A model generated the notes under the pieces. The model was not told the DNA's origin. It ran no database searches and saw nothing but the letters and a program-made list of their open reading frames with translations. This document shows, piece after piece, positions 28,507-61,733 of a stretch of DNA of 64,000 nt. The DNA is from Vermamoeba vermiformis (lineage: Eukaryota): assembly GCA_045837725.1 (NCBI GenBank), contig JBEWZL010000013.1:124001-188000 (forward strand), given 5' to 3'. Numbering within the stretch: position 1 is the first letter of the stretch; each line of letters begins with the position of its first letter. The position numbers and the translations under genes are program-made.

Positions 28507-31500
28507 CTAGTTCAACTTTGCGAGTAAAGAAGTGACTACTGGCAGCGATTCCACCACCTCTTCATCCCCTTTCTCAACGTATATAAGAGTGGCTTCCATT
28601 CCCTTTCTCAAGTTCTCCTTGATCTCGCTGTTCGCCAACAGATCGGGTCTACAACAAAAAGTTAGCGGACTTACAAATGCGCTTAATAATATACCTCTTG
28701 GCGATAATCTGGTCTAATCTTTTTAGAGTTTTAGCAACTTCTTCCCAGTCTCCATCAACGGCTGAAGGGAAGCAAGTCGAAATGAAGGCGAATTTTTCGT
28801 TGAGGTTAGGTACTTGGGCTTCACAATAGTATATGACGTTCATATATGCCACTATTGTATCATTAGTAATTATAGTACGAAGTACTTCGACTTACTAAGT
28901 GCGTTGTCGTAGACCAAGGGTCGTGTCGTGCGGTACTCTGGGGTCAATTTTTGTTCAATCCAATTGATCAATTCTGTCCATCAGTGCCGTTAATATACAG
29001 TACTGGGCACCTATAGTATACTTACGAATGAAGTCATCTCCAGTTGGCAATGTGCTCGGACACAGCTCCATCGCAACACCTAGGGTGTCGTTGTGTCAGA
29101 AAATTGTCATTAGGCTTAATTGATCATACCGTAATGATTAACAACCGCTTGTTGAATATAACGCGAGTCATTATTGAAGAAATTTGCCAAGAAATCGAGC
29201 AAGGGTTTCTGTTTTTTTGGTGTTAGATCCGGTCATGAGTTGTCGAATGAACTTACAGCACTCAAGGCGAAGTGAGCAGCGAACGTTTCACAAGCAATAG
29301 CAACTATGCATAGGTCCAACCATCGTTCTTCAGGGTCCTCAGAGTCCTCAGGGTCCGATTTATCTTCATCAAAGGGGTCGACGACAGTGTCCAGCAAAAA
29401 ATTAACAAAGACACTAAAGCCCGGTTTTTGACAGAAGAGGTCCTTATTAGGAATGTGCTTGCATATTGTCGAGAAATAGTATATGACCTAAAACAGTATA
29501 AGCATTAAATTAGTCAACGAAAGGTGGATTCGCTCAGTAAATTCAAATTTCCAATAAGAATTAAACTAAATAGCGATATTAAGAAACGGTTCATTTAAAG
29601 GTACCAACGGTTTCAATATGAGATGTAAGAGTTCCTACTTACTTCAGCTCCAAAGCCTCGTTTTTCGTCGAACGGACTGTCTGTTACACCGAATGTCATA
29701 ACGCCAGCAGGAATCATCGCCATTAGTTCATTAGTAAAATTTGAATTGAACAGTAATTCTGGTGCTAAAGTAAGCACATGCGACACAACCTGAAAAAGTA
29801 AGATTTGTAAGTAAGCTGGATCCGAGCTCGAGCTTTGTTCGTTAAGATTCAGTACCTTATTGAACGCTCTAAAAACGTGTTCTTTGGTTTTAATATCAAA
29901 GGTAACCTCGTTGATGATTGTTTCGGACATTTGTCGCAAGCGAATGACTTCTGCGAAGTTCTGTTTTGCCCGCTCAGATGTGGTGAGGTCATGTCGCGTG
30001 ATGAGCTCCGAGAACGCATCAGAGCAAATCATAATAAAATCTAAGCTAGTTAGAACGCTTATAGGTGTACCTGAGACGTACCTGGGGTGGTTTGACTCTG
30101 ATAAAAACGTTTCCCAAAGGAGATCTCGCATTTGAGCGAGGTAGGGCTGCAATATCTCGTTGTCCACGTGCAGCAATAGTCTCCACATAGCTGACAGTGC
30201 CGATTTCTTTGCTTCAACACTACTGTTGAGGCCTCCACGCTAAATCAACGAGATAAAAATGAGTTCAGATCTACGAGGGACACGTGTCAAAAGTGTCACT
30301 CTAACTTACTCCCAATACGTAATCCAGCTGTCTATCCTTTTGATGAGGTACATCATCGTCGCCTAGAAGTAAAGTACATTAGATTCACTGAACGAATCAT
30401 TCATGAATGATCGTACCACTGTCCATTTCGTCCGAAAAGGCGATGACATCCGCCGATGCTTTTTCCATTAAGATTGGAAAGATGATTGGAAGGAATGGCG
30501 CAAAGTTGTTGCCAAGCGAGCTCACGGCAAACTCCGTCAACTTAATCACCAAGCTTTCATTCGCTTCTCTGTCATTCTTAAAGTCTTCCACTGCCTGGGC
30601 GTACAATTCAGACACGTCAGTGGCAATGCTCGCTTTGTTCGTCGCGCTCAACACTGCGCCTATTCTGCCTAGTGTCTCCATGACCGAGTCACGTGTCATT
30701 TTGTCACCAGTGGCAAGCAGTTTTTTGAACTGTTTCAGTGCCGACTCCTTGTACTACCCGCCAAAAGGTTATTATCGAAGTTAATATACTTTAATCATTC
30801 CTACCTTCAAGAACGTATTGTCGGATATCATGAGCAATGCACAGATCGCAAAAATAGCCTCGTGTCGCTTAGCAGAATTGTCGTCGCTAATCACGTACAA
30901 CTTCTCCAACAAGGGCTGTAAATACGGCTCTAATTTTGTCTCGTCGTCAACGTGTTCACAGTAGCGAGTAATGAACGAGCAGACTAAGAATTTGATCCTG
31001 CAAATAAACTTTGTAAAATTGTACTAACATCGAAAGATCCATGGATCCGCGTACCTCATACTCGGGGAATCAATTAACTTTAATATAATTGGTAGAATTT
31101 GCGCAGCGTAATCTTCGGCAATTTTCATCTGTGTCAATTAATGAGCGACGATTCATCGGATCCGAACTGTTTTGTTAAACTTACTTCTGTTTCCTCGCTA
31201 AGATAGGAAGGCAAAGTGGACAAATAATGGAGCGATGATATGGTCATTTCTCGGTCTTCTGATACTTGGAAATAAGGGAAGAAGTATCTAGAGTTGCATA
31301 AGTGTTAATCCAAAGTGACGTGTGAAAATTTTATGACACGTGTCATGATCGGATCCGAATGTCAATTTTTGAATTGTCCCACAAGCAGAAAAAAGTAATA
31401 GATTTAATGACACGTGTCAAACATCGAATACTTACGTTGCCATAAAGTTAGGCAAGTTCTGCACTATCGCACTAGCACATCCTTCAGCAATTGCATTGAT

Positions 31501-32972
31501 GATGCTAAGGATTGTTATCGGCCTTCGCGGCGACGGTTCAATGGACTTGAAAGCCGCTTCAAAAGTTTGGAATGCTCTTCTAGCAAAGGGTTCTAAAGGA
31601 GTTACATATTAAGCCCATTCATTCATATGAATGTTTTAAGCCTTACTTAGTGACATGCTCAAGTAGTTAAACGACTCTTCAATTTCATGCGTTGGCGAGT
31701 CACTTTCGGGGTCAAAGTCCTCGCTCAAGAATTTTTGCTAGCAATCTTGTCAGGACCAATAGAATAGCAATAGTAGGTCTATTTCAAATGACTTACCCAT
31801 GCCTCGCCAAGCGGTACTTCATGAAGGTACTTTGTCATCGCTCGGATGAAGTTGCCCAAGTACATCCAGTACCAATCGACTTCTTCCAAATAATCGGTCT
31901 TGTGCCACTCCAAGAACAATTCAGCGCAAGACAGCAAGTGTTGTGAGACTACATCAATAGGCACTTCTTTCTTAATCGCCAATTCGCAGAACTTTTCGGT
32001 TACTTTAGCAACGCTGAAGATCAAGGTAAGAATAATGTTTCATGAGCTGAATAAATGTAACGTACCGTTGCGGAAGTTCTTTAAAAATACAAGGTGCAAT
32101 AAATTCACGATAACGCCGCAAAAAACTGCTGGCAAAGTTGAGGTACTTCACACGCGAGACGTTCACTTGGGACAGGATGTGGAGCTCCAGCTCCAAATGA
32201 AAATTCGCTAAATGCATTAAATTTGCTCTTACAAAGGATGCTCGTGACTCTTCAAAGCCTTCGACCAATTGTCGCACCATCTCATCGAGCGCAGTGTCAA
32301 GTTTTTTGGTGAAAGTGCCCAGATCTCTGATCGACAAAAATCCGTCTGAAAAAAGACTCTTATTGTTACTTCCTACGCCTTTAGTCTTCTTCTTTCTGAG
32401 TTCTTGCATCCAGCTCGGAACACGATTGTTTTTCTTCTCTGGTGTAAAGTACTGGATCGCACTTTCAGCCTTCTCGCCCAGATCTCTGTTTCAACGCTGA
32501 TTAAGTGCCGTTGTATTATGTTAAATACTAACCTTAGTAAATATACTTTGCGCCAATCAACTCGACGTTCTTTGTCGGCACCTTGATGGATGAAAGTGTC
32601 AGTCCTGCAGGATCTGGACTTTCAGTGACAACGGCTTACCTCCTTCGCGCATAGGAATAAGCCAATTCTTCGCGTAGTCCTTTTCAGTTGGCAAAACCTC
32701 CCATCTTGTCAAGCAGAACTGTCGCCAAAGCTCGTTGTTAACGCTCATCTGGCTCCATTTTTTGCAAACTTCCGCGAAATTATCTTTAAATAATTTTAGA
32801 AATTAGTGTAAGGAATAACAAACTATAATTTGAACGAAATCATGTTATTTATTTTACTAAAATTTAAAAAAATTGGCGGACAGAAAGTCTTACGTAATTC
32901 AAATGGATCCAACGCGGCGAAGAATGAAAAGAGCACTTCCGTGGGCCAAGAATTAATGTCAAACGAGTTCAT
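28507..32972 (-). CDS. F-box + importin-beta (IPO4/IPO5-like) HEAT-repeat fusion protein
   Basis: N-terminal WPTEVLFSFFAALDPFEL..VCKKW..NNELWRQFC (F-box). It splices in frame into SIINAIAEGC, RDSVMETLGRIG, FAPFLPIIFPILMEKA, EAKKSA and YDNALS, which resemble karyopherin-beta 3/4 HEAT segments. Confidence 0.75.
31334..31345. repeat. Intronic palindrome TGACACGTGTCA, copy 1 (extends to 14 bp, ATGACACGTGTCAT)
   Basis: Read directly; lies in the intron at about 31288-31435 of the F-box-importin gene. Confidence 0.9.
31408..31419. repeat. Intronic palindrome TGACACGTGTCA, copy 2
   Basis: Read directly; same intron as copy 1, near its donor site. Confidence 0.9.
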
Positions 32973-33214
32973 GTCTGGCGTGATAAGTAAGAATTGTTAG
33001 ACTGACTGGACGACAGTAGCAAAAAATCTTTTTGAGGCCTGGAGAATCACAAAAAGCTATTTAGTTATTACGAAGACCCTTATATATTATAACTTTAAAC
33101 TTACTTTATCAATTTGAATGCAGGCACGGTGCGTTCTTTCGGCGCCAAGATCCAAATTTACTCAAACGCGACTCGGTTTCGAGTTTGTAGAGTTCCTTTT
33201 GTCCCATATTACTA

Positions 33215-33925
33215 TTATGAAGTCTTTCTGCTGTATTTTAAGGTGATTTTTTTGTATTTGTACGAGTTCATGTCCGGCAACTGTTTGTACACTGAATCCG
33301 TCAACTTCATCACTTGAAGCCAATGCAGTGGCTCTTCATTCGGATCAGTAACGCCCCCTAATATAATATTTGATAATTAATCCGGCTTTGATGTTGAATT
33401 AACCACTAATTTAGTTTTACGTCCGATCAACAGCTGGATCGGATTCAAATCAGATCGTAGTAAGTAGAAAGCTATGATAACGTACTCATTCGATATATAG
33501 TGATCTCTCGTTGATGATAGTAATGTATTCTACCACGGATAACAACAAAGTCGCCTACTTCGAAGAGATCCGTCGCTGGATTATTGTTGTTCCATTTATT
33601 GCATAGAATGACACCTGTGCCATCATCAACTGGTATTACGTTAATATATATGCCTTAGTGTATTTTATAATAGAACGTACTCCACATCTTGCTTTTATCA
33701 ACGTAGCCCCGCAGATCGACAATAATTCCTGCGATCTCAACTCGCGCAACTGGGTGTCCGTAATAATTGATTATGTCTGGTTATTATTGAACACATTAGC
33801 AATGTTATATAACTGTGTATATTATTCGTACTGTTGAAGTCGTAATACTGTGGTGCTTGCAAAAGTGCGCGGATCGACAATTTAACTGAAGCGTAAAGCA
33901 CTGGATCGAGCGTCCACTGCGTCAT
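33215..33925 (-). CDS. STN1: CST complex subunit STN1-like OB-fold protein (short form)
   Basis: VKLSI..GHPVARVEIAGIIV..DDGTGVILC..GDFVVIRGRIHYY.QREITI..DPNEEPLHWLQVMKL, an STN1/RPA32-type OB fold. The 3' end is approximate. Confidence 0.72.
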
Positions 33926-41528: not shown

Positions 41529-42293
41529 TTATTTTTGATCGGGAGGAGCGAAGAAAGAGGCACCACTCAGGCCCTTGGGAGGCGTGGTACCGAACAACTT
41601 TTGCAAGTTGGGACGAATAGACATCGAAGCCAGAATGTAAATGAACACCATAGAGCTGTCGGTGTAGTCGGAGCCTAAGTGGTCATATCAATATTGCAGC
41701 TCTAATTAGTTAACTAAGCGCGTGTACGTACCAGGAACACCACGGTGCGAAATGCCTTGAATGATTGACAAGGGCTCGAAAGGCAGCTTAGCAACGGCAC
41801 GTCCATCAAAGCTGCTCGTGCGTTAGACCAATGGGTGGTGATATTGTATGAATAGAACTTACTAGGAGTTCAGGGCAGAGATGAAGGCGAAAGTGAATCC
41901 AATGAAAATGAAGAAATCGGACTTCATCTTCACCATCGTCAAATCTTTGCTAGCGTTGCGCAACTCTGCGTCTACAGTCTTAACTTTCTTGTTTTCTTTG
42001 GCACCGCCTTGCGTCTTCTCTTTCTGCTTTTCCACTGCGTTTATCGATTAATTACAAATAATATTACGAAAATGGTAGAAAAATAGAGAAAAATCAACTT
42101 ACATTTTTTAGTTAACTTGTCGATAGTGGCCTTTAATCTTTTGTAATTTTGAGTTCGATAAATCAACACGTAAGCCATGCCTGGATCATGTTAATAAAAT
42201 ATTGCATACGTCACTAATTCAAGTACCTTCGGCAATGAGCGAGCTGACAAATGATGCCAACAGCACTAAAAATAAATCTTGCAAGTCTATCAT
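41529..42293 (-). CDS. TMCO1: TMCO1 (Oxa1-superfamily ER membrane protein)
   Basis: AEGMAYVLIYRT.NYKRLK..KMKS..FDGRAVAKLPFEP..SHRG.PG.DYTDSSMVFIYILASMSIRPNLQKLFG. Confidence 0.96.
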
Positions 42294-42413
42294 TGTCCTT
42301 CGGTCCTGTAGTCGCTTCGGACTGGTCAAAAAGTTCGTTTTTTTGGTTTGACACGCTTTGACCGTCCAGGTCTTTCTTTATTAAACTTTGTAATGGTGCA
42401 CATATAATATCAA

Positions 42414-45400: not shown

Positions 45401-47725
45401 TCGGCTTACCTAACGCTCCTAGCCCTCGGTATGCGTTATTTAATACACTAGGTCTCAGTGTTACTAATGGAGAATCATTAGCGTCAAGTTCTCAAGTTGC
45501 GTGATTGGCAAGCGGATCTATGTTTGGGGCGGTGAGAAAGAACAGCCGCAAGTGTTCAATCGAAAGACAACACCGATCGTATTGACAGACTACTTTTATT
45601 TCGACACTGGTTCGTACTATTATATCACGATCCTATTGAGCTTAATTGAACTTTTGCTCGTGCAGAGAAATCAGAGTGGGTTGAAGTCGTTGTTGAAGGT
45701 CAAAACTTGGCCACGCACAGTTTGTACTCGATTCAAACGATCAACAACAAGGCACTCGTGTTTGGAGGCTGGGGTATGGAAATGACGTCACAACACATAA
45801 CAATTAATATTAATTGCTTATATGTCGTATTGTAGACGGCAACAAGCAGCACAATGAAGTTTGGATGCTCGAGCCGATCAACTCCGAAGGCACGAGACTG
45901 CGGTGGTTCAAGCCACACATCACTGGCACAGTACGTAAAACAACTCTTCATGCGATTTAGTTCCTAACTTGGCGTAGATTCCTCGGCCGAGAAACAATCA
46001 TGCAGCTGGTGTAGTCGGCAATAAGATCTTTTATTGCGGTGGCTGGGGTGGAAAAACATTCTTGTTTGACATTGACGTGCTCGATCTAGGTACGTAGAGC
46101 AGTATGTTGACAGCATTGGACCTCACTGACACGTTACACTAGACACGCAAGCTGTCAAGGACAATCGATCGCTCGAGTACTGCTTCAATAATTCTACTTT
46201 GTGGGATATTGAAGTGCTCGTGGGAGGAAGAAAAATATTCGCAAACAAAGCGGTGTTGAGTGCTCGGTCGTCTGTTTTCCGAGAACTTTTGGACCCTCAA
46301 TTAGCACAAAAAGTCAAAGCGGAACAATTGAATGCCAATAATACCAATACAAATAAGAACGGTCCATTGCACTTTGACAACGTCAACTTGCGGTGGTTTT
46401 CACTGAACAATTCCTCGGAGGTCATGCGATCAGCCAAGGACTTCTTGAAGCTCACTGACAATGGCTTCGTGTTGGAAATTTCAGATTTTAGTTACGAGGT
46501 CATTTACTCACTGGTAGGCAACAATCAATAGGGTGTTATGACGTCACTTATATTAATCACTATTGCAGTTGTACTTCATGTACGCCGATCGACTGGACGT
46601 GTCTCGCCTAGACAACCGTGAGCGGTACTTGAACACCGTTAAAGCTGCACATTTGTTCGCGCCAGAACTGGCCCAAAAGATCTCTGAAGAGTTGATCTTG
46701 ACGCGCACGACTGAAGGCAGCTCAATGTTCAAAGACACCGCGATCTACTTCAATTGGGACGTGTTTGCTGATGTCACATTCAGCGTTGAGGTATGACACT
46801 TGACACGTGTCAAATATAGACATCTCTGACACGAGTTCATTTAGGGCCGACCAATCAAAGCGCACAAAGCGATTGTTTGTTCGCGAAGTCCGTTCTTCAG
46901 AGCTCTTTGCATGGGTGGTTTATCTGAAAGCAGACAAGTACGTGAGATATTAATCAACATTACCAAATAAGGCTAAACCTAACTATTTTTTTGCAGAACG
47001 AAATTCCGCTAATGAACATTTCGTACGACGTGTTCAGCATTCTTTTGCAATGTTTGTACGGCGCAGAATTGAACTACGAACAGATCTCAGAGGAGCATTC
47101 GATCATGGACGTCCTTGAGGCCGCGTGTCAATATCAAATCGACAATTTGGTGCGAGACTTGGAGGATATTATTGGCACCAACTTGACGCAGGAGAATGTT
47201 TTATCAATTTTATTGGAGGCTGACAGACACCAAGCCAATCGATTGAAAAAGTATTGTTTGGACGTTATTGCCTCGGACGAAGAAAGTATCGTGAACAGCG
47301 AAGAATACTTGCAAAACAAACAAATGTTCGATTCCATATTAGGAAATTTCTTCGAAGAAGAAAAACAAAACCGCGAACAAAAGAAGCGCGAAGAAGAATG
47401 GACCAAACAAGAAGAACAAATGGTGCAAGAGCAAGGAGACGATGAAGAAATGATTGAGAATGACGACGGAGAATTTAATTTGCCCGAGGGCCTTGCAAAT
47501 ATCTTAGGCGCGCAGGGCCTGCAAATGTTACAAGCTTATTTGAACGGCCAATTGAATCAAGGTGACGTCGACATTGATATTGGCGATGAAGATCCGAATG
47601 ACCCGAATGCCGAACATCACCACGATGAAGATAATATGGACGAGGACGATGATGACGATCAGCCACCGCCACCGCAGCACAATAATTTGCCACCGCCTGG
47701 TGCTGCTAAATGTAACATGCAATAA
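42414..47725 (+). CDS. Ankyrin repeats-Kelch (with inserted SPRY)-BTB-BTB protein with acidic tail and CaaX
   Basis: ANK ([23 protein letters not shown]); Kelch (PSPRY..LYGG, IYVWGG, VFGG, PRNNHA..YCGG); SPRY ([41 protein letters not shown]). Two BTB domains ([36 protein letters not shown]) precede the C-terminal CNMQ. Confidence 0.88.
46801..46812. repeat. Intronic palindrome TGACACGTGTCA, copy 3 (extends to 14 bp, TTGACACGTGTCAA)
   Basis: Read directly; intron 46791-46844 of the ANK-Kelch-BTB gene. Confidence 0.9.
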
Positions 47726-47996
47726 ACAAGTGTTTAACAAGCAACACATCTGTCCCACGAATAAAATTGATAAAAATAGTGCTTTTTCAATGAATCATTG
47801 AATGTAATGTTTAATGTAAAGAAGAATCGGAAGAGACAAACATAACTCTTTTAACTTGCGATGAATGCATTTAGCTGGCAAGTAAATTCATTAGTAAATT
47901 TCGAAATAATTGATTACAAAAGGTAAAGAAGTTTATTTTACATCGATAAAGGAATAGAAGGATTTCACGAAGTACATCCGGCCATTTAGATCCGAC

Positions 47997-49293
47997 TTAT
48001 TTTTGGCCCGGCACTATTGAAATATAAACAAAGTTATCAGGGTGCGACAAATTATTCGCGAGCCACACGAGTGGTGTATTCAATGGCGGTCTAATTCCTT
48101 GGACGACCACCGCACAATCTACAGCAACGTAATTTCCTTTTACGGCAGTCTCCTTGATTAACTCGGGAAATTTCGTTTTCAAAAACGCACCGAGAGTCGT
48201 CTCTTCCCCACTCGCGTCAATAGCCGGCACTGGCTCTTGCGTGAAGGGTCTGTCTTGTCTGCAGACACGCACTGGCACGCTCTTCATTTGGTCTTTGTCC
48301 GCGGTGAGCAACTCGTTTGACTTCCAGAATAGACTGAACCCGTCTAGCGGCACATATTAGTATTTATATGCAGGGATATAGGAAGGCGAGCAAGGGTGTG
48401 GGGTAGATATAAATGGGTTGTATATGATTATAGTGCTATAATAATGGAGCACAAAGGACTTACTGTTAATGAGCCCTTGCCACAAGTTCTCGGATTCTTG
48501 CAGCGACAACGTGTTAATTTTCTTGATGTCTCCGTGCTTCAAATAATTAGCCTATCGTGCGTAGTTAATATACGAAGCATATTATATAATAATTAATAAG
48601 ACGTACTTCTTTAACTGAGTTGTTGAAGTGTGATTGAATGGTTTGGATGTTGGGGCAGCGTAACAGTCGTGCAGTCGGGAAGCCTTGGAAATGTACGATC
48701 AAACTCCAGGGCAGTTCTTCGTTGCCATATAAATCATATAATACACCAACAGGAATGTGCCTGAACGAAGAGCAGATTTAGAATTAAAAATTAATTTTAT
48801 CGAGCTAAATTGAAAATTTGAAGGAAATTAGTCGCTACAATATTATTTGTTACCAATTATGCCAAATAATAGTATTTTTTGAATTGGGTCGGCTTGCATC
48901 CGAAATTTAGAAAATTGAAAAATTGAAATAAATAGTAATACCATTTTAAAGGAATCCTTGAGTCTGTTTCAAACCACATTTCGTCATTAATAGCTGGTAC
49001 TGATGCTTGGAAATATTGTTTAATTGGATCCGTCACCAAGGTGAAGTAAGTACTGCGAGAAATGTTCATCTGCGACCAAAAATTAAGGAGAAATATAATT
49101 CATCGTGTAAATAATATTAATATTCAATATAATGCATAATAAGCATTAAAATATTAATTTTGAAGGATACGAAAAATGGATTTGGTTTTTCTAAGGTGGT
49201 GACTTCGTTGCTCGCCAAATTGAAGACTATGGGGATAGTTCCTTCCCAAATTCTTTTTCTAAATTCACCGTCATTGGCAGCACCTTCGTTCAT
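47997..49293 (-). CDS. ATG5: Autophagy protein 5
   Basis: IWEGTIP..SRSTYF..MWFE..PLKWHIPVGVLYD..PWSLIVHF..VPVRV..VVQGIRPPLNTPLVWLANNLSHPDNFVYI. Confidence 0.97.
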
Positions 49294-49414
49294 ATTTGCA
49301 ACTTGTCTAGTGTTCTGTTGGTTCGTGTTAACAAAATGAAAAGTGAGCCATCCACAACAATTAGCCGTTTCGAGCGAACACCACTAGCGGTCATAATTCA
49401 TTAATGAGTATAAT

Positions 49415-50871
49415 ATGAGCAATACTTTATGGAGAAGAGTTGCAGCAGTCACATGGAACGAGCCCAACCATGCACTGGTATGTTTGTAATCGGATCTCTG
49501 TTACATTGCACTGCTTATTCAAGATATGCTAGTCATAATATATACGATATTAGAGGAAATATTTTTAAACGATATTTTGCATGTTTGCACGAGGCATTTC
49601 GAAGCACATTTCCGATCTCAATTTTTCTGAACCTCGTTAACACTTTAAAATATGTAGGTGTATGCTAAATATGATGTAGATGTTACAGAGCTCGAAATAA
49701 TTCTCAAACAATTATCAGCGCGCTGGGGCATTAAATTGACTTTAACGACGCTGTTATCGTGGGCCTGGGCGAGGTAAATCCTTATAAATAGCATCTAATT
49801 ATTCACAATATAATATTAGAGCGATGGGAGATAATCCGCTAGCCAACGCTATTGTGCGTGACGGAGTTTTGAAGCCTGTAAGTCGGATCTCCTTTGGATC
49901 TTGTTGTACAAGCGCTTATGACTGTTATTCCATAGCTACCATGCATCAAAGCATCATTAGTAGTTTCACTACCCAAATCAGATCAAGTTTGGCCAGTCAC
50001 CATCGAAAAAGCAGATCAGCTCAATTTAGAACAATACGCACAAGCATTAAAACAAAGCGTAATATCCGTAGTAACCTTAATAATGCAGCTTTATATTAAT
50101 TATAGCTATAGGTACATGCGATTAGAGAAAAGAAGGAAAAAGAGCTCGACGATCGACTGCTACCAAAGTTGCTGCCAGTAACTATCTTGAAGTGGTTGTT
50201 AGGGCTATTTACGACACTAAGGACTGATTATGGATTCAATCTCAATTGGATTGGCGTCGAGAACGAGCCTTTTCAAGTATGAACTGCAACCTTAATTGTA
50301 CGGATCTAACAAGTCTTTTACAGCCGTCGAGCTTCACTTGTACAAGTGTCGGAATGTATGATATGGATGACGGTAATAACAATATACTATATTAGTGCTA
50401 TATAATGTTATCTGAAGCTAATTATATCCTACTAGCATTCGCTACGTTTGCTCCGTTTCAACCAGTTCCATTTGTAGTCGCAATAGGCACAGCACGAGTA
50501 CGTATACATAACTAACATTATATGTAGTTATTATATTAATGGTTGTATTGTGCAGTGGAGGCCGTGGGTGATGGAGCAAGGCAGTACGCAACAAATTGTT
50601 CCGCGACGCATTGTACCATTTTGTTTGACCGCTGATCATCGTGTGATCGTATCCTTAATAGTTATCGTATTATTAATATTATATGGACCTCTCTTTTGTT
50701 TTCTTTGACCAGTTGTTTCAGGATGGAAAGTTAGGTAGCTCGTTGTGGGCAGATTTTAAGAAGCATTTGAATCAATTCAGCAAAGAATATGAAGGTCTAA
50801 TAGCGCATAATACGAACACTAATAATAATAACAATAATTATTCACTGCCTGTTGTACAGTCGAAGTTATAA
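49415..50871 (+). CDS. Stand-alone 2-oxoacid dehydrogenase E2-type acyltransferase catalytic domain with PTS1
   Basis: MSNTLWRRVAAVTWNEP..VDVTEL..LTLTTLL..SFTCTSVGMY..VVAIG..FCLTADHRVI|DG (E2 catalytic DHRxxDG). No lipoyl domain is seen; ends VQSKL*. Confidence 0.85.
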
Positions 50872-51228
50872 ATTACCCTAAAATGGAGCCGCTCTTCTCC
50901 CGTTCTGTGTGCTATTTAAGTATTAATTCGTGGAAATACTAGTTATACATCACATATAGTAAAGTAAAAAAGTGCGAATTCAAAACGGTCTGATCGCTGA
51001 ACACGAAAAATTAAACTATGCTAAAAGGCTTAGAACTCAAATAGTAGCCTCCCAAGCGTTGGTGTTTGTGCAAGGAATTTTTCTGGTTGGTCGTGGAAGA
51101 GCAGTCAGACCGAAATTGGAAACGCACATGTTAGGGGTCCCCGTTAGTTCGGTAAGAAATTGAACTGAATTTCATGTTCCAACATTTGCGCAACTGAACA
51201 ACACGGCGGCTAGTACTATTGAGCCAAT

Positions 51229-52935
51229 ATGGAGGAATTTCCGGAAGGATTAAGGAAATATTACGAGGATGTTGAAAAGTACAGCTCTGACGTACGGTTT
51301 GTCTGCATCTAAATTTGAAACTTGATTAATGTAAGTCTTTAGTATGATGGCAGAGTATATAAGTGTGTTCATAAAACCAAGAAGACGATTGTGCTAATTA
51401 AAGAGGTATCTGATTATTTGCGCCAGGCAGAGGCAAAGATGTTTTTTAGAAAATTGTTTATTTGGCTTGATCTGCTCAACCACGAAAATATTTTGCAGCT
51501 ATATTACGTGCACAGAATAGATAATAAGGTTTACCTTGCATATGAACATATGGGTAAGCTTGAACATTAATTTTGCGACGTTTTCCAAATTTAATTTTTT
51601 TTTTATGTTCAGCGTCAGATCTGCACGCCGTAGCACGAGCACAAATACTTCTAGACGTTCATATTAGATACTTTACATATGAAATACTTCGTTTATTCAA
51701 ATATGCGCATTCAGCAGGCTTGATCTTCCGTGACCTTCGGGTAAAGATTATTAGCCTTAATATTTACATATATCCTCCGTATTAATTATGACTAATGTAA
51801 TATAGTCAGTTTTATTTGGGGTGAATGAGGACTGCACGATGAAATTGATGGAATTGAACGACGCTTTTGTTCAAAGCGATATTGCGGGCGACACTGAAAT
51901 TCGCGATCGAGTGATTTCGAATCGATGGTATCGTCCTCCAGAGCATATGGTAGGCACTCCTGAGTAAGTCATACTATTACGAAAGCAATCAACGAATGAT
52001 CAGATCAGATCTGACCGAATCTAATTTTTCATTAGCGAGGAACTTACTCCGGCGTATGATATGTGGGCACTCGGTTGTATTCTAGGAGAAATGCTAGGAA
52101 AAACGCCATTTACTGGCTATTCAACGATGAATCAGATGGAAAGAATCGTCGAATTTGTTGGATTCCCGACTCAACAAGACTTAGAAGACATGAAGTCACC
52201 ATATGTTGCTGCAATAATGGAGGCCGTGGTTGTTCCACAAGTATTTCGAGATTTTAAAGAGATTTATCCTAACGCATCTGAAGATGCGCTCGATCTACTC
52301 AAAAAATTGCTGCAATTCAATCCGAAGAAGAGAATCACTGCGGATGAGGCTTTAAAGCACAAATTCGTCGCACAATTTCACGGATGCATGCCAGAAAACG
52401 AATGCCCAAACAAAATAACTTTTCCGTTTGACGACGCTCAATTCTCCGATAAACAATACACCGAGAAGATATTGCAAGAATTTATTGCAAAATTAACGCT
52501 AAAAGTACACGAGCCATTAACGTCTACACTGATATTAGCGCACAACATTGCACGCAGTTCAGAGGCCCTCGCATTGCTACCCATTGAAATATGGCTGTTG
52601 ATATTCAAAATGATGGACGGACCAGCACAGTCCGACGACAAAATTGGATTGCACGAGAAGACAGCTGCGCAAGTGTTCAATCATTATTTTAGAACTGGAC
52701 GGAAAGTAAGATACAATCAGCCAGGCGTCAATAATGACAGCGAATGAAAAAGGCAAATGTGACTGCCGAATATCAAGAACGTAGCTACTGGAAGAAAGTG
52801 CCGCTACGGCCACTTATCAAGTCACAAGGAGACTCGTACACATTCAAAATTGTTGGCATGCAATACGATCCTTCGGCGACTGTTGCTTCATTAGCAGGAC
52901 CACAGCACTTTCTAACATTATACCCCGACATGTAA
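51229..52935 (+). CDS. ERK7/MAPK15 (ErkB)-like pseudokinase with C-terminal extension
   Basis: SDLHAVARAQILLDVH, RWYRPPE, DMWALGCILGEML, GYSTMNQMERI, ALDLLKKLLQFNPKKRITADEAL..QFH, with degenerate catalytic motifs. A 35-nt intron (52706-52740) joins ORF 52744-52935 in frame. Confidence 0.85.
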
Positions 52936-52983
52936 TCGATGATGCATAGATGGAACTCCAACCAAAACAGCATTAAGATCTAT

Positions 52984-54661
52984 TTATAGAATCGCTAGCC
53001 AAGCCACAATACAAAGAACTACAAAAATAAAATATTTTGCAGTATTTCCAGCAGCGGAGCTCGTTGTGTGAGTGCACTCCGGAGTGTCAACAATTGCATC
53101 ACTTGGAGTGGCGAGAGGACTGTCATTAGTGCTTGGTGCAGCTACTGGCGAACTATCCACGGCCAGTGCAAATGGATTCTCAGTCACTTTGGTGCAGCGG
53201 TCCATGAGGCCCTGACAGTCGTTGAGCAGTGACGTGTTTGACGTGACGAGATCAATGACAGATTGGATGTCACACTCGTCGTAAGTGACACGCTCGACAC
53301 CCTCCTTGCGGTAGTACCAATCAGCTACATTTTGCGCGATGGTTCTGCCTTGAATAGCGAGGCCATTCCACTCCAACACGTGCTTGAAACACGTGGTCAC
53401 GAACACAGCATCGTTCATTGGATTTCGTTTCAAGTCCGTCAACAGTGAGCTGCGCACGTACTCGCCAACACGCATCACGTAGTCCCCGGCCCCTGAAGCA
53501 GCCAAAGCAGCACTGATTGGTGAAGGAAAGCGCAAGTTCTGGAGCAGTGACGTGTCGAGCAGTGATTGGGCCGAGTACAGTCTGTTGGGCAGATAGTTCC
53601 AGCCGTAGAGCGGAAAGCCGCAGTACGATGCGTTGGTTGGATTAGCTGCGGCACAGTCAGCATTCACACGACCTTTGTACAGCACTGAAAATGCGAGGGA
53701 CAAACTGTCTGGCAGCGACGGACCAGTCCACGAGGGCGTGAAGTCAGTGAACCACCCTGCATTCATTAGCGCTGATATGCTTGCATTGGGCACTCGCTAT
53801 AAAACATAACGGTGTTAGCTCTTGATTAGTATTTTGATGCACGTGTACATTGTTGAGCCAGTCAATGTTTGAGGTCACGCCTAACGCTCCAGCACTGCCA
53901 CCAGCCATCAAAACTTCCGTAGCATTATTGAAGCCGTACTTGGCAATAATATCTATGGGTTGAATCATCTGTAAGTATTTATACTAGTGCGCAGCCAGGC
54001 CCTGAACTGACCCTCAATGACAGCTTTGAAAATCAAATGACCCGCAAAGTATAGCCCAAAAGTCACCGTTGAGTTTTCAGTCTGCGTGCCAGTCCACAAG
54101 TCACCGCTGCAATACGGAATATGCACGCGTGTCCAGTTGTAGAAACCCTATAACAATGACACGTGTCAGAAGATCCCAACTTTTCAGCTGCGAGTGGATA
54201 CTTACCGGATTAGAACTTTGGTTGGGACTAGTATACGTACCAGTATAGCTAGCGCCAAAATAATTGCTCGAACCCAAGCTAGTCTGTTTGAAAAATAAGA
54301 AACGAAAATTCAATCATTGCATACTGTAGTACGAGCAGTGCAACCAGCTTTATCAAAGCATAAGCCACCTCCTTCGAGTGAGATCACCCACTTCGTAGAT
54401 TCCGCGCCTATTCAGTGGTTGTCAAAGAGTATGTTGATTAAATGATGGATCTTTAGAGATCTTACCTGCTTCAAAATAATAGCCTGCATTCGATCCATCG
54501 AGACTAATTATGTTAAAATTAAATGTCTTGTACAAATGTTCGGCTAGTTACCATCTGGCCCCTGTTTGATCTACGGCACCGAGCAATGCCAGAGATAAAT
54601 TGGCATCACAGTACCTAAATACAGCCAACAAAAGGGTAGTTAATAATATGCACTTGATCAT
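52984..54661 (-). CDS. Pectin acetylesterase/Notum-family hydrolase, secreted, probably GPI-anchored
   Basis: Signal peptide; ARCLDGSNAGYY, WVISLEGGGLC, FYNWTRVHIPYCSGDLWTG, nucleophile GGSAG. An S/T/P linker and a hydrophobic C-terminal tail follow. Confidence 0.92.
54157..54168. repeat. Intronic palindrome TGACACGTGTCA, copy 4
   Basis: Read directly; intron at about 54148-54205 of the acetylesterase gene, overlapping a CTGAC branch-site-like position on the minus strand. Confidence 0.9.
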
Positions 54662-55053
54662 CCTCGCGTGGCTGAATGTGCAAAAACGCAATAAAAATGT
54701 CTCCGTAATTTTCAATTCATTTGGACAATTTGTTGTCAAAATCTCTGGCAACAATTACATCATTGGTACTTATTTAATTAACTCCTATCATATCTTTATC
54801 GCTAATGAAGGGATATTTTATCGGCAAACGTTTCTTTCTCTAGCGATTCTTTTTCTCTTGCAGGCTAGCCGGCTTGGTCTTAAAATTGCCATTACAAATT
54901 AATGTCCATATACAGCGTGTTAAAGCCCAAAGTTGTCTTCGTTCCAGACGAATCCAGAAGGGTCTAAAATTGACCCGCCGTCAAATGACCAAATTTTGTC
55001 CGTTTCTAAAGATATTTTTGTCATTTTGATTTGTTTCCATCTACACGATCACT

Positions 55054-58000
55054 ATGGACTGCAGAAAATTCACAGTAATCGATCCAGAGACTATCTCTAC
55101 GGAAGAAGAAAGGAGATTAGCTCGGGATGCATCTCGTGAGGCAAATTGGAAAAGATGGGGTAATTATGACGTCCTTTACCGATTAATAATTAAAAAATAT
55201 TATTTTACTCATATTTATGCTGTTAATTGAGATTAACTAAGCGAATTGCGTGCTAAATTTACATCTGACAGGACCTTACTTATCTGAGAGACAATGGGCC
55301 ACGGTGCGAGAGGTAAATAATGATTAGCATATATTTGTTATTTGAATGCATAATTTCACAAATAGCGGCTCAAGAGCTAACGCCGGAACGGCAGCATCCA
55401 AAAATCTTTTGTTATTAAAATTAGAATAATTCAAGCTTGCGTGCATTTGGCAGTACTATATTGATACTATATTACCCGATCATTAAAAGGCCTAAAATTA
55501 TTCTAGTTCTAGAATGTTCTACGGCAGCTAAATCCGTTTTGAGACACAAGATTTCTAATACGCTTAATAGGATTATTCCGAAAACGGAGACGTATGGAAC
55601 TATTTTACGCACGATCAATCGCGAAGGTAGAGCTATTATTGCACTCATTTACGCAAACGACCTTTGGATCCACATTTTATAATTTTATTTCAAGCGTAAT
55701 TACTAATCAAATTTAATAGCCGCGCTTATCGATGGGGTGAAGACGGTATTTTAGGCATTTGCGATCGCGAGGTAAAACTTTAATTTTATTTTAATTTCTT
55801 TCTAAATATTTGTAGTGCCGATTATGCTTTGCCTTGGCTTTATGGAACGAAAAAGGTACATATATTACATGATCACCGTATTCTTTAAAGAACATAAAGC
55901 TAATAAATGCAGATCCGATTTTGAAAGAAAGAATTTTCGGTCTGACCGGAGCAGAAGGCAATCACGGAGAAGACCCTAAAGAGCTGTATTTTTACGTTGA
56001 CTCGACTCCTACGCACTCTTATATGAAAGGTACATAATACTACACCTCCGCTAATGAAAACTAACTCTTTTTCAGGCCTGTACAAATATCCTCAGGCTGA
56101 ATATCCTTACGCCAAACTCGCTGCTGAAAACAGAAAACGAACCAGAGACGAGCCTGAATATGAATTATATGATACTGGTACGATATTGCTACATTTTTTA
56201 AATATGACGGCTAATTTATATTTTGACTAGGTATTTTTGAAGAAAACAGATATTTTGACGTGCAAGTGGAATATGCCAAAGCAGCGGACAATGATATTTT
56301 GATCAAATTGACAGTCAGCAACAGAGGACCCGATACAGCTACTATTCACGTCTTGCCAACGATTTGGTTCAGAAACACGTGGATCTGGGGCTGCACTCAC
56401 GAGGGCTGTTGGATGAAGCCCAAGATCAAGGACAGATCTCCATTTGTACGTGACACGTGTCATTGGTTTTGCTAGCGTGGTGGCTAACATTTCCTTTTTA
56501 GGAAGTCGAGACATCGCACGAGTCCCTGGAGCCGTTCGTGTTCCAAGTCGAAGATCAGCCTGACTGGCTCTACACGGACAATGAAAGCAACAATGTCGCG
56601 CTGTGGGGACCTAGCGCTGAAAACTCCTCCAAGTACACCAAGGACGCGTTCCACCGCTACTTGGTACGCATCATATTCCTTTCGTATTTATCAGTTTTAT
56701 ATGATACTTTAAGGTTTAATAAGGGTTGTGACTTACACTATGAATAATAGATTAAAGGAGAAAAAGACGCTGTTAACCCAAAGCCACGTGGCACTAAAGT
56801 GGCTGCTCATCAGCGACTCGAAATTCCTGGTGGTCAAACACGCGTGTTGAAGATGAGAATGTTCGCGCCTAGCAAACCTACGGGCATTCCTCAAGAACAC
56901 AAAGCCGCCTTTGGTACGTGCAACAGATTCCATTCCTTAGATGAAAAACTAATTTTTTTTCATAGCCGCTTTTGACGCCATGTTTGACAAGCGAGTGCAA
57001 GAAGCCGATGAATTCTACGGCAAAGTTATTCCCGCCAACCTGTCGCGCGAAGAAAAGAACACTGCTCGCCAAGCCTTTGCGGGTCTATTGTGGGGCAAAC
57101 AATTTTATCACTACATTGTCAAGGACTGGATTGACGGTGATCCAGGTACGCGCCAAACAATAATCAATGTGACATCTGACATTAATACTGCTGATAGAGC
57201 AATTGAAGCCGCCAGAGAATAGAAAGAAAGGTCGTAATTCAGATTGGGGTCACTTGTTCAATCGCGACATTATCAGCATGCCCGACAAGTGGGAGTACCC
57301 CTGGTACGCCTCGTGGGACTTGGCTTTCCACATGGTGCCCTTCGCTGAGATTGATCCGTACTTTGCCAAGGACCAATTGATTCTCTTCTTGCGCGAGTGG
57401 TACATGCATCCCAACGGTACGTGCGAAGGGCTGACTTTGACGATCCGAGACTCATTTCCTAATTTAGGCATGATCCCCGCATACGAATGGAACTTCTCCG
57501 ATGTCAACCCGCCAGTGCACGCATGGGTACGTAGCTATTTCCTTTTATGGTAAGGCTAGTGTTAACGTGTTAACCAGGCTGCATGGAAAGTCTACAAAAT
57601 GACCGGCAAGAAAGACAAGGGATTTTTGATGCGAGTCTTCCAGAAGTTGTTGCTCAACTTCACGTGGTGGGTCAACAGAAAAGATATGTCAGGCAATCAC
57701 ATCTTCTCGGGTGGTTTCTTGGGTCTCGATAACATTTCAATTTTTGATCGCTCAACGACACGCGACCTCGAACAAGCTGATGCTACCAGCTGGATGGCTT
57801 TCTTCTGCGCTAGCATGCTCAAGATTGCCATTGAATTGGCTCAGCACTTCCCTGCCATGGAGGACATTGCCTCGAAGTTTTTCGAACACTTTGGTAAGGG
57901 AGTTAAAAGTAATAATTGATTTAGCTAACTGTCTCTAGTCGCTATTGTTGACGCTATGAACACGCTGGGAGGAACTGGTCTTTGGGTAAGTGCCTTAAAG

Positions 58001-59180
58001 ACAAGAATTCTAGGAGCTATGCAATTGACACGTGTCATATAGGACGAGACAGATGGTTTCTACTACGATCAGCTCAAAGCAGGCAATGATCGTGTACCTC
58101 TGCGTATCCGTTCAATGGTCGGTTTGATTCCGCTCTGCGCTGTTAACGTGCTCAAGTCCAAGGACATTGAAAACTTGCACGGCTTCAAGCGTCGTATGGA
58201 ATGGTTCTTGAACAACCGCAAAGGTAGGCACAAGCGCCTAATATGAATATGCATCACGAGCTCTAACACTTTTGACCAGATTTGGGTCGTCACATCTCGT
58301 GGATGCAAAGCGGCGATTCTGCACGACCTAACTACTACTTGTTGGCCGTGCCAAGTGAAGAACGTACGTATAAACTGCTAGTATTTCCAAGAAGGAGGAC
58401 TAACGTGCTTCAGGCCTGGTTCGTGTGCTGCACTATTTGTTCAAAGAAGACGAGTTCTTGTCGCCCTACGGCATTCGCTCCATGTCCAAGAAGTACGAGA
58501 AAGAGCCGTACACCTTCAAAGAGGGCGACAAGGTCTACACGATCAATTACTTGCCTGGCGAGTCCAACATTGATTTGTTCGGTGGTAACTCCAACTGGCG
58601 TGGTCCTATTTGGTTCCCTGTCAACTGTTTGCTCATTGAAGCTTTGCACAAATTCGCGAGGTATGTCTTTTCAGTGAACGATACTCGCATTAACTGACAC
58701 GTGTCAATTGCAGATACTACGGTGATAAACTTCAAGTCGAGTATCCCACGGGCTCGGGTGTCAAAATGGGTCTCGAAGAGTGCGCTGTAAGTGCTGGCTA
58801 TATATTTAGTTGCAAGACTTTGCATTAATTTTTCACAACTTTTACAGCAAGACATCCGCCGCCGCATGACAAAGATCTTTTTGCCCAGTGCTGAAGCTGA
58901 CGGAGCACGACCTTGCTTCGGTGACAACGAGCACTTCAAAGCAGATCCGCACTGGAAGAATTTGTTGTTGTTCCACGAGTACTTCCACGCTGACTCGGGC
59001 AAGGGTCTTGGCGCAGAGTACGTAGATCTGGTATTGCCTTTTATGGTAACCGTGCTCTAACCAACTTCCTTTTATAGACATCAAACAGGCTGGACTGGAC
59101 TCATCGCGTATCATTTGTTACATTTGACGAAGAAGGGTCGTAGTCAATCCAACCTGGATGAGAAGGCCAATGGCAAGTGA
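55054..59180 (+). CDS. GH63-like glucosidase (YMR196W / mannosylglycerate hydrolase-like)
   Basis: [120 protein letters not shown]. Confidence 0.95.
56451..56462. repeat. Intronic palindrome TGACACGTGTCA, copy 5
   Basis: Read directly; overlaps the last base of the GTACGT donor (56446) in the GH63 gene. Confidence 0.9.
58026..58037. repeat. Intronic palindrome TGACACGTGTCA, copy 6
   Basis: Read directly; just before the TAG acceptor (58040-58042) in the GH63 gene. Confidence 0.9.
58695..58706. repeat. Intronic palindrome TGACACGTGTCA, copy 7
   Basis: Read directly; overlaps a CTGAC branch-site-like motif before the CAG acceptor (58711-58713) in the GH63 gene. Confidence 0.9.
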
Positions 59181-59409
59181 GATCTGATTCGGTTGTAATT
59201 GCTGGGTGCTACGTGCTAGGGATCAATAATGTTGTATAAATACAATTAAATGCATTAAAGTTTCGTGACGTTAGCTCTTTGATAACACTCTTAAACGGAA
59301 TGCAACCTAAATAGACCAATAGAAATCAAGATAAAAATAGTTCGTACACTGTGCCGTTTTACTTTTTTCAGTTATTCTAATTGAATAATACGAGGACAAG
59401 GTTGCAATA

Positions 59410-61733
59410 ATGCAAGTAGAAGACTGGAAGTTAGTAATACTGGGGAAGTTAGGCGTTGGAACGACTACTTTTTTGGTCCGCCACGTCCAAAACATTTTCA
59501 TTGGTGCGTGATTACAGCATAATTATGCAATAATTTTAATAATTCTAATTTTCCAATTTGATTACCAATTTCATAACGACAAAAATAAACAAAAATATTT
59601 CTAATTTATTAATTCATAACAGATTACTTCGAGCCCGATTTGTACATGGGTAAGTATATAATAATTTAAGTGTTAACAATAAATTAATGAATCTAAACTA
59701 TTGGACAGACGCGTACCGTAAACAATTGGAGATCGACGATCGCCTTTGCATTCATGAAATGTACGATCTTTGGCTCACTACCGATGAGGTACACGCAATG
59801 TCAGACATTGTCATGAAAAACGGCCAAGGCTTTATTGTAAGTGCCCCAAGATCCGAACGGAAACCACTAACAAACCTTACTGTAATTTAGATTGCATACA
59901 GCAGCACCGATCGATCGTCCTTCCAAGTAGTACCCGAATATATTGAAAAAATCCAACAAATTAGAGGTGTTCCGCTCGAAGAAATTCCAATCGTTCTGAT
60001 CGAAACAAAGTGCGATCTCGACACAAGTCAGTCACACCAGCAAAACAACGCTATAATTATAGAAAATTAACACAGTATCGCTTAGATCGACAAGTATCGA
60101 TTCAAGAAGGTCAAGCTCTCGCAGCTCAATACGGATTCAAGTTCTTGTCAACATCCGCGAAGACAGCACACAACGTTGACGAGACGGTGTACGAATTAAT
60201 TCGATTGCTGCGAGCCAAAGCGGATTTGGAACGATTCATCAAAAAGAACGGCGGCAAGCGACCCATTCCTGCTTCGAAGATTGTATTCCCGCCATTCAGC
60301 TCAACTCTGGTACCCTACTGATGACGCTGATAGCCTTATTTGGAAATAACTGATTATTTCTTATAGATTAGTGACATCTCAACGCAGTTGTTCGACAATC
60401 CAACCTATTCAGACTTGACACTCGTGGTCGACAAGAGGCCTATTCACCTGCACAGTACGATCAGTGATAATACTGCAATCGATTTCATTTGGCTAATGTT
60501 TCTCACTGAACAGAAGCAGTGCTGTTTGGACGACTTCCGAGCTTCATGGAGAAAATCAAAGCTGTAAGCTTGATCCGCTCACATATGTGTGCAATGCGGA
60601 ACTAACACCCGATCATTCAGGACGACAAAGTGATTGACCTCGAGTCATCAATGACCTATCCAGTAGTGTACAGTGTATTCAAATATGTCTACTTGGGAAA
60701 GTTTGAGAGGTATGCCTACGAAGGTCTAGCAGGTCGACTAACCATCGATAACTAACAATCGATTACAGAGCACAAGGAGCAACAGACGCACAATACAAAG
60801 CAGCAATCATGAAGTGGGAAGTGTTCAACTTGCTGCCAATTCTCAAGGTACGTTCGCTTGCCGTTGAGTTACATGTACGCGTACTAACTGGACGTCACAG
60901 AACGAAGAAGTCGAGAGTTTCACACCAGCATTCGAACGACTGTTCAATCTGAACTTCATGAGTGACTTGAAGATTGTAGTTGATACGAGTGACAAGAAGA
61001 AGCAACAGCGGCACGAGATCTTCTGTCACAAGATGATTCTTTGTGCACGCAGTGAGTACTTCAGAGCCATGTACTCGGTAAGTGAAGCATTCTAAGTGAC
61101 ACGTGTAAAAGCAACTCACACTTTCCTCTCAGGCAGGATTCAAAGAGTCCACGAACACGGAGCTTGTTATTGACGACTGCAGTTATGAAGGTTAGTGTTA
61201 AAATATACATCATATTGCTCTTCTAACCGACACTACAGCTGTTTTGTTATTGCTCAACTATTACTACCGCGATACACATGAGATTGAAGATGAGTCGCTG
61301 ATGATGGATCTGCTACCGTATGTGGCAAAGAGATCATGTAATATTAATTCTAATGTTTTCACAGACTCGCCAATCGCTACAACGAGCGACAAGTGCTGCA
61401 AATGGTAGCGCGCTATCTGCACAAAAAGATCACCATCGAGGCTGTGTGCTACATTCTCGCACTGTGTGAGATGTTTGTGCTTGACAATGAACTCAAACAA
61501 GGTACGACTCCACTGGTGCTTGTCAAGTACTCATTCATTGTTCAATAGCGTGCCACGAGTTCATTTCCTATCGGTTCAAAGCAGTCGCCAAGACATCAGG
61601 ATTCAAACAACTCTCAGCTGAGACACGTGCATCATTGGAAACACAACAAGCACCAGGTCTGTGGTTTATTGTCAAAGAGAAGCAAGATGAGTCGTCGCAG
61701 CTGGTCAAACTCATCAAGAACCTTACGCTGTAA
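59410..61733 (+). CDS. Degenerate Ras-like GTPase domain fused to two BTB domains
   Basis: KLVILGKLGVGTT, DAYRKQLEIDD, NGQGFI.AYS, PIVLIETKCDL, STSAK. The BTBs read LSDLTLVVDKRPIHLH and MSDLKIVV..IFCHKMILCARSEYFRAM..GFKES. Confidence 0.88.

Follow-up and report, generated by a model that had tools for sequence, protein, structure and literature searches.

A perfect 12-base palindrome confined to very short spliceosomal introns in Vermamoeba vermiformis: a possible branch-site module whose copies could pair across over-long introns

We analysed a window of 64,000 bases of eukaryotic DNA (Vermamoeba vermiformis, assembly GCA_045837725.1, contig JBEWZL010000013.1, positions 124,001 to 188,000; all coordinates below are those of the window), which has a G+C fraction of about 0.41 and whose Pfam-recognisable genes are cut by many very short GT-AG introns. 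The matches of its proteins are mixed and opisthokont-like, the nearest ones with a name being spread over animals, early-diverging fungi and bacteria. We found that a perfect 12-base palindrome, TGACACGTGTCA, recurs in this window far beyond chance, and that it is a real cis-element confined to spliceosomal introns of 50-57 nucleotides (nt). The reading that we consider the best, and that we put forward tentatively, is that this 12-mer acts at the RNA level as a self-complementary branch-site module, pairs of which can zip over-long introns.

An exact search of the window returned seven copies of TGACACGTGTCA (31334, 31408, 46801, 54157, 56451, 58026 and 58695), precisely those listed in a preliminary description made from the sequence alone. 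Their recurrence is confirmed: a set of 100 dinucleotide-preserving shuffles yielded no copy, and sites with at most two mismatches numbered 13, against 2.1 ± 1.4 expected. Predicted introns account for 6,556 of the 64,000 bases (~10%), and the probability that all seven perfect copies would fall within them by chance is ~1e-7; with the two one-mismatch copies (30278 and 61097, both intronic) included, nine of nine are intronic and P falls to ~1e-9. The preliminary claim that the copies are restricted to GT-AG introns of four unrelated genes on both strands thus held for every copy. Conversely, ~34 kb of non-genic or unannotated sequence and the surroundings of gene starts contained no copy of TGACACGTGTCA, and none of the nine perfect and one-mismatch copies lies outside introns. 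Two-mismatch copies are found at 26815 and 30687 (exonic), at 46127 (intronic) and at 46794 (intronic, overlapping the perfect copy at 46801). The bases that follow TGACACGTG are TCA in seven of the nine perfect and one-mismatch copies, and the palindrome arm is exactly six bases long in five of the seven perfect ones. These regularities, too, count against the notion that chance produced the 12-mer, or that it simply reflects base composition together with the consensus of donors and branch sites; parts of the motif do overlap GTACGT donors and CTGAC branch sites, but the shuffles and mismatch counts effectively refute this explanation. About one intron in ten bears the 12-mer. Among the 40 listed of 158 strain differences, no substitution falls inside a perfect copy, and a listed one-base deletion at 58706 can be placed so as to leave the copy there intact. 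In the published literature, the strings TGACACGTGTCA, GACACGTGTC and TGACACGTG led only to primers and plant G-boxes, with no description of an intron motif; we likewise found no account of such a motif in the literature on palindromes and introners, supplements aside.

The four genes that carry perfect copies are mutually unrelated, lie two on each strand and have no evident common function. Their models were built with a crude dynamic programme based on codon potential and then tested on protein, profile and RNA evidence. Gene A (28507-32748, minus strand) encodes a HEAT-like protein and has 16 predicted introns; gene B (plus strand) encodes a Kelch plus two-BTB protein; gene C (minus strand) encodes a pectinacetylesterase-like (PAE) protein; and gene D (55054-59176, plus strand) encodes a GH63-type glucosidase and has at least 14 introns. 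Gene D holds three perfect copies, gene A two plus one near-copy, and gene B one plus one near-copy. An intronless 728-amino-acid protein from the Joint Genome Institute collection (P0001, on a 2.9-kb contig) is collinear with gene D at ~95% identity, spanning every predicted junction and exposing one more in-frame 51-nt intron; the three motif-bearing introns 56446-56501, 57986-58042 and 58661-58713 are therefore true introns. The first of these is also skipped by four RNA reads (run X21, at most ~3 reads per base, from a strain 95-99% alike), so that the proposed check of splicing by RNA sequencing came out positive for it; two other introns have RNA support as well. As a separate observation, RNA runs that share the species label of the best DNA run match positions 43000-62900 at 95-99% only and at very low depth: they represent either another strain or species, or samples in which the organism is a minor part.

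For the remaining genes, the evidence comes mainly from profiles and reading frames. Removal of the 54-nt intron 46791-46844 (plus strand, gene B) joins ...DVTFSVE to a BTB exon, with the downstream exon matching the BTB profile from position 21. Intron 54148-54205 of gene C precedes an exon in which positions 95-138 of the PAE profile are matched, and the 55-nt intron 61078-61132 interrupts the BTB domain of a plus-strand gene. A 59-nt intron at 7536-7594 (minus strand), in a Yju2/CCDC130-like gene, is confirmed by the CCDC130-like protein P0126 and carries sense TGACACGTCG at +15. The gene A introns 31288-31435 and 30240-30309 have as their basis compatible open frames, GTAAGT donors and the coding potential of the crude model only; an exhaustive profile search for homologues of gene A returned a single 88-amino-acid fragment. 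The one-mismatch copy TGACACGTGTCC (30278..30289, transcript sense, minus strand) lies in the 70-nt intron 30240-30309 of gene A, with a further sense TGACAC 3 nt upstream, and the one-mismatch copy TGACACGTGTAA (61097..61108, plus strand) lies in intron 61078-61132. The near-copies previously reported as intronic, at 30279, 61097, 6101, 7573, 46126 and 46826, all exist; the one at 6101 falls beyond the Yju2 gene and is only putatively intronic.

In several introns the position of the 12-mer would suit a branch site. Of the 88 predicted introns, 68 measure 44-80 nt, mostly 50-57 nt, and the normal length for most of these short introns is ~44-62 nt. Donors are GTAAGT (22) or an unusual GTACGT (18). 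At the branch site, CTAAC or CTAAT is usual; the A stands 10-20 nt before the acceptor, and the donor-to-branch distance is normally ~30-45 nt. The position of the 12-mer varies among its introns (+6, +11, +17, +35, +38, +41 and +91). In three perfect copies, the motif's TGAC forms a YTRAY-type site with its A within the range of ~10-20 nt upstream of the acceptor, which bears out the overlap with branch-site-like TGAC that had been noticed before: at 14 nt in 58026..58037 (57-nt intron 57986-58042, gene D), at 16 nt in 58695..58706 (53-nt intron 58661-58713, gene D) and at 18 nt in 54157..54168 (58-nt intron 54148-54205, gene C). Introns 57986-58042 and 54148-54205 offer no YTRAY-type candidate other than this TGAC at 8-32 nt from the acceptor; 58661-58713 offers two, the motif's CTGAC and a TTAAC alternative at 20 nt. 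A two-mismatch copy, TGACACGTTACA (46127..46138, plus strand, 53-nt intron 46090-46142), occupies the branch-site position too, with its A 13 nt away from the acceptor. Four perfect copies (+6, +11, +17 and +91) lie elsewhere, and an ordinary branch site is found downstream of them: the copy at 56451..56462 overlaps the donor of the 56-nt intron 56446-56501 in gene D (GTACG, then TGACACGTGTCA), in line with the earlier remark that some copies sit next to the donor, and this intron has a separate GGCTAAC branch site, while the copy at 46801..46812 stands at +11 of 46791-46844 in gene B, upstream of a separate branch site, CTCTGACACGAG.

The two halves of the palindrome are not treated alike. 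When perfect copies are set aside, introns have TGACAC, the half-site, 11 times on their sense strand and its complement GTGTCA once (binomial P = 0.006, with some of the introns predicted only). Similarly, decay in the four near-copies affects the 3' part, and each of them still has TGACACGT, the 5' part in sense orientation. After most CTGAC-type branch sites comes AC, and TGACACTT, which would continue the pairing with U2 small nuclear RNA (snRNA), is present in several further introns. For U2 we take the sequence GUGUAGUA; an Rfam search of the window found no RNA genes and hence no U2 snRNA. Because the asymmetry of half-sites and near-copies follows the transcript, we favour a role at the RNA level. 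The earlier suggestion of a site for a chromatin-organising protein or for DNA modification gained no positive support: intergenic copies are absent and near-copies decay asymmetrically by transcript.

A related explanation is that TGACACGTGTCA is a dimeric DNA-binding site, bound by basic helix-loop-helix or basic leucine zipper proteins on CACGTG, or by a TALE-homeodomain pair on TGACA..TGTCA, and serving as an intragenic regulatory or chromatin mark. The perfect two-fold symmetry, the even length and the CACGTG core would all fit, and the MEIS/TGIF palindrome TGACAGCTGTCA resembles the 12-mer. In addition, promoter-like TTGACA boxes are flanked by the 12-mer in many metagenome contigs of bacterial appearance, and the 12-mer is hence a workable dimer site. 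Asymmetry along the transcript strand, however, is unexpected for a symmetric DNA site; the ~34 kb of non-genic or unannotated DNA and the neighbourhoods of gene starts are devoid of copies; outside introns, CACGTG on its own is not notably over-represented; sites of real factors show degeneracy, whereas seven of the nine copies are perfect over 12 bases; and the carrier genes have no evident common function. We therefore regard a dimer site as quite unlikely. The metagenome contigs merit mention in their own right: in L001, L007, L008, L011, L015, L021, L022 and others, GC-rich and bacterial-looking, two 12-mers 64 base pairs (bp) apart bracket TTGACA-type promoter boxes, and from their sequence these pairs look like the operator pair of an unknown repressor.

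Pairs of the 12-mer inside introns have a different setting. The only two-copy intron in the window (31288..31435, minus-strand gene A) is 148 nt long, about three times the norm, and in transcript sense its layout is 16 nt, copy 1 (31408..31419), 62 nt, copy 2 on the 3' side (31334..31345) and 46 nt. In its predicted minimum-energy fold, a stem of 13 bp joins copy 1 to copy 2 (z = -1.2). We then scanned metagenomes for the pattern copy-N(47-77)-copy, which returned at least 120 loci. Most of these are unrelated, being bacterial-looking promoters bracketed by two copies, satellites, or repeats resembling miniature inverted-repeat transposable elements (MITEs), and a scan of viral contigs gave one irrelevant match. 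Two eukaryotic loci, however, share GTACG donors and 50-62-nt introns with the window, to which they have no similarity. The first, on the oral-metagenome contig L042, is an XPD-like helicase gene whose match to the Helicase_C_2 profile is divided at 99|106 by a 136-nt intron (23 nt, copy, 65 nt, copy, 24 nt); the predicted fold of this intron carries the copy-copy stem (z = -3.6). The second, a single locus seen in L004, L014 and L051, has two probable introns, one of 145 nt (13 nt, copy, 77 nt, copy, 31 nt; predicted stem z = -2.5) and one of 57 nt in which the motif ends 3 nt before the AG. All three two-copy introns are thus predicted to hold a 12-13-bp copy-copy stem within the minimum-energy fold. 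The length left after pairing would be 62 nt in the window, 47 nt in L042 and 44 nt in the L004 locus, which is normal intron size, and the donor-to-branch residue would be 16 + 28 = 44 nt, ~32 nt and ~30-35 nt, respectively. Because the metagenome query demanded pairs, the pairs were found by design, and only their placement inside one intron is informative. An origin of the pairs by tandem duplication was rejected, as flank similarity was not significant (P = 0.03-0.95). With regard to the L042 gene itself, 1085-3007 encodes an XPD/ERCC2-like helicase with an Asn-rich C-terminal tail and shows the window's intron grammar; in its intron 1429-1479 the branch region is AACTGACACGTAT.

These observations are consistent with a motif that would act in the pre-mRNA, its 5' half yTGACAC serving as the branch site. 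The G in place of the A of CTAAC would weaken pairing with U2 (a G-U wobble), and two further pairs, of AC with the GU before GUAGUA in U2, would offset the loss. Where the motif stands 13-18 nt from the acceptor, it would be the branch site itself. Self-complementarity allows any pair of copies on the same transcript to anneal into a helix of 12-13 bp. Over-long introns are rare, and in them the first copy lies 13-23 nt past the donor and the other immediately precedes the branch site; their pairing would loop out the surplus intron and restore the usual donor-to-branch spacing. Such stems would form in the RNA and would help splicing. The preliminary description had raised a branch-point or hairpin splicing signal; its branch-point part is supported by the sense bias of half-sites, the sole branch candidates and the paired copies placed as a zipper would need, whereas the hairpin of a single 12-mer is too short to matter, a point to which that description did not extend.

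Several results weigh against this branch-site and zipping role. Most copies are single, in ordinary-length introns and without a partner, and the perfect 3' half is left unexplained; that all 12 bases are kept in single copies is in fact accounted for by no reading. The branch-position bias of single copies is not significant (four of eight vs ~27% expected, by a rough estimate; P ~0.1). RNA depth, at no more than 3 reads per base, is too shallow for branch sites or retention, and no lariat reads were seen. The pair cases number only three, and the metagenome query had itself asked for pairs 47-77 nt apart. The published account of yeast zippers (PMC12350175) requires a linker of at least 42 nt and at least 20 nt to the branch site, and of the three introns only that of the window lies within these limits; those values are modelled on the yeast A complex, and the donor-to-branch distance in the present introns is normally just ~30-45 nt. 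An RNA-supported 181-nt intron (~48761-48941) lacks a stabilising stem (z = +1.0), and long introns therefore need no zipper, though a 101-nt intron, likewise supported by RNA, does hold an AT-rich hairpin (z = -1.8). Finally, enrichment of even palindromes alone, described below, points to duplex symmetry or a DNA-level origin and not to selection for RNA hairpins.

These introns, we found, hold a wider and unexplained class of even palindromes, among which the 12-mer is the most frequent; the preliminary description had not recognised this. Perfect even palindromes are 4-10 times enriched in these introns: one of at least 10 bp is present in 18 of the 68 short introns, against 4.1 ± 2.0 in 200 dinucleotide shuffles (maximum 10), and one of at least 12 bp in 11 of 68, against 1.1 ± 1.0. 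When the motif family is removed, 12 of 61 introns (3.9 expected) and 7 of 61 (1.1 expected) remain at these two lengths. In contrast, palindromes with one unpaired central base are not enriched in the short introns (4 vs 3.8 for at least 10 bp; 1 vs 1.0 for at least 12 bp), and hairpins with other odd loops are at chance level in introns. Counted over the whole window, introns hold 19 palindromes of 12 bp or more where 2.4 are expected, exons 8 (expected 4.6) and the rest of the DNA 18 (expected 11.1); five of these last 18 sit in intron-like contexts. The arms end sharply, complementarity past the core being 0.31 vs 0.27 expected, and many unrelated sequences are involved. Examples are ATCATTCATGAATGAT (30396..30411, intron 30363-30416), the related CATTCATATGAATG (31620-31633), CGAAGTACTTCG (28878..28889, intron 28852-28895), TTAGTTAACTAA (41706..41717, intron 41675-41731) and CAATTAATATTAATTG (45801..45816, intron 45774-45835). 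What sets the 12-mer apart from these is its seven recurrences, its arms of exactly six in five of seven copies and its presence in other contigs. Gene A is a palindrome hot spot, with eight palindromes spread over seven of the 16 introns predicted for it; TTCGGATCCGAT is found in a pair of adjacent introns of this gene (31155 and 31358), and the half-site CATTCAT/ATGAATG in two others (30396 and 31620).

The loop-free even symmetry, with odd centres at chance, argues for a duplex-level entity rather than for selection of RNA hairpins. This entity could be two paired RNA copies, a dimeric DNA-binding site, or the product of hairpin-end or template-switch repair; the strict even symmetry keeps a duplex-level reading alive. 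Four simpler accounts of the palindromes were discarded: RNA hairpins, as odd loops are at chance; decayed longer palindromes, as complementarity outside the core is near expectation; introns as inverted copies of flanking exons, as inverted matches equal direct ones; and a branch site joined to its complement, which by eye fits only 3-4 of 12.

A more substantial competitor is a DNA-level origin, in which some intron-linked DNA process would have generated the palindromes, the 12-mer among them, or carried them along, and they would persist because introns tolerate them. Candidates are the repair of breaks after hairpin capping or template switching, a small mobile unit of palindromic form, or sequence carried along as introns were copied into new places, and the abundance of the 12-mer would then reflect that one half happens to serve as a branch site. 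Taken jointly, we regard these as doubtful but worth serious consideration. The restriction of the excess to even, loop-free palindromes, their sharp ends and their many unrelated sequences all accord with such an origin, as do the intron-rich, bacterial-like gene D with its two paralogous introns (see below) and the identical 12-mer in introns of unrelated genes on other contigs. On the other hand, intergenic palindromes are not enriched (the 18 vs 11.1 given above, with 5 of 18 in intron-like contexts), the 12-mer lacks flanking direct or terminal repeats, the motif introns are otherwise unlike one another, and no inverted copies of flanking exons were found. Moreover, seven identical 12-mers without degenerate relatives need constraint or very recent spread, random repair would not yield one repeated sequence, and the asymmetry of half-sites and near-copies tracks the transcript strand.

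The history of the introns bears on the same question. In one exon, gene D shares 64-74% identity with scores of bacterial glucosidases, with a single named eukaryote (Corallochytrium) among the best 120 matches; judging from these matches, the gene probably came from bacteria and gained its introns later. Within it, introns 57527-57577 and 59018-59077 agree at 25 of 27 aligned 5' positions, apart from a 5-nt indel, and have in common GTACGTAG and TATT(T/G)CCTTTTATGGTAA; no relation is seen between the 3' halves. By appearance the two are intron paralogues inside a single gene. Given this paralogy and at least 14 introns in a bacterial-looking gene, introns seem to have been gained and copied in this lineage. 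To that extent the preliminary idea that the motif is the footprint of an intron-generating element found some footing; against it, motif introns resemble each other only in the 12-mer, and neither target-site duplications, terminal repeats nor flanking direct repeats were seen around copies or introns.

By the same token, the motif introns might form a paralogous, introner-like family, in which one ancestor spread by reverse splicing or transposition and its descendants diverged except for a constrained 12-mer. Copies cluster within genes A, B and D, gene D contains clear intron paralogy, and three introns have a common layout of motif, 5-9 nt and AG. Even so, an all-against-all comparison of the 88 predicted introns found that motif introns share only 12-15 nt, that is, the 12-mer and at most three flanking bases, in a window too small for a genome-wide family census; the motif stands at +6, +11, +17, +35, +38 and +41, and the architecture is thus unshared. 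Known introners, according to PMC8469720, are recognised by near-identity over their whole length. We consider such a family improbable.

Two other features of the window stand apart from the introns. An element of ~145 bp (50984-51129) with inverted ends GGTCTGA...TCAGACC has a depth of 1265 in the DNA run, vs ~150 nearby (~8x), with loose ends at its borders, and is probably a high-copy MITE. On the minus strand, 745-4692 holds a very long open frame (a model of 1274 amino acids with two introns) that has no Pfam match, an AT skew of -0.29 and a G+C fraction of 0.49.

Returning to the branch-site module, an organism whose introns are all ~55 nt long must recognise them over a fixed span, and how branch-site variation and occasional long introns are handled is poorly known outside budding yeast. 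If our reading is correct, a single fixed word, self-complementary and reusable, that combines the functions of branch site and clasp would solve this problem in a way both new and simple. A bolder extension, which we rate as rather unlikely, is that there exists a small vocabulary of self-complementary words, TGACACGTGTCA being the commonest, that would act as intron-specific branch site and clasp and spread as introns are copied; with the same reserve, such words would be to eukaryotic introns what REP-like palindromic repeats are to bacteria, and would amount to a rule, written in the sequence, for the control of intron size. The excess of even palindromes, in a lineage with intron paralogy and an intron-filled gene of bacterial type, may bear on intron origins. 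A small but real share of our belief is kept for an explanation outside all those set out here.

The module has partial counterparts in several known systems. Bacterial repetitive extragenic palindromes (REPs) and the mosaic elements built from them (BIMEs) are likewise short palindromic units dispersed only in transcribed non-coding stretches; unlike the 12-mer, REPs are imperfect, looped hairpins between operon genes that are mobilised by RAYT transposases, and nothing of that kind was seen here. G-box/E-box and TALE-homeodomain sites share the CACGTG core and the two inverted TGACA half-sites, but the 12-mer is strictly intronic, has no degenerate copies and shows transcript-strand asymmetry. 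In Trichomonas and Giardia, an extended branch-site motif is fused to the 3' splice site (ACTAACACACAG). As in our introns, the branch site is there followed by AC(AC), with longer U2 pairing, and lies near the acceptor of very short introns; their motif, however, is non-palindromic, fixed in position and present in nearly every intron, whereas the 12-mer is found in ~1/10 of introns and at variable positions. Introners and the symmetrical stwintrons of Hypoxylaceae are also intron-specific repeats in unrelated genes of an intron-gaining lineage, and the internal symmetry of these stwintrons is thought to permit double-stranded intron RNA; those families show near-identity over whole introns of 50-250 nt, with inverted repeats of 45-55 nt in stwintrons (PMC8469720), where we find 12 bases only. 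The zipper stems of yeast introns (Saccharomyces cerevisiae RPS17B, RPL7B and others) similarly form a helix between a segment after the donor and one before the branch site, which shortens the effective donor-to-branch distance in long introns (PMC12350175; 10.1101/2025.03.14.643126). Two of our three cases fall outside the yeast steric limits; and whereas the yeast stems are idiosyncratic inverted repeats whose sequence is poorly conserved, here one fixed self-complementary 12-mer is reused across several genes and contigs; it also occurs singly and would double as a branch site.

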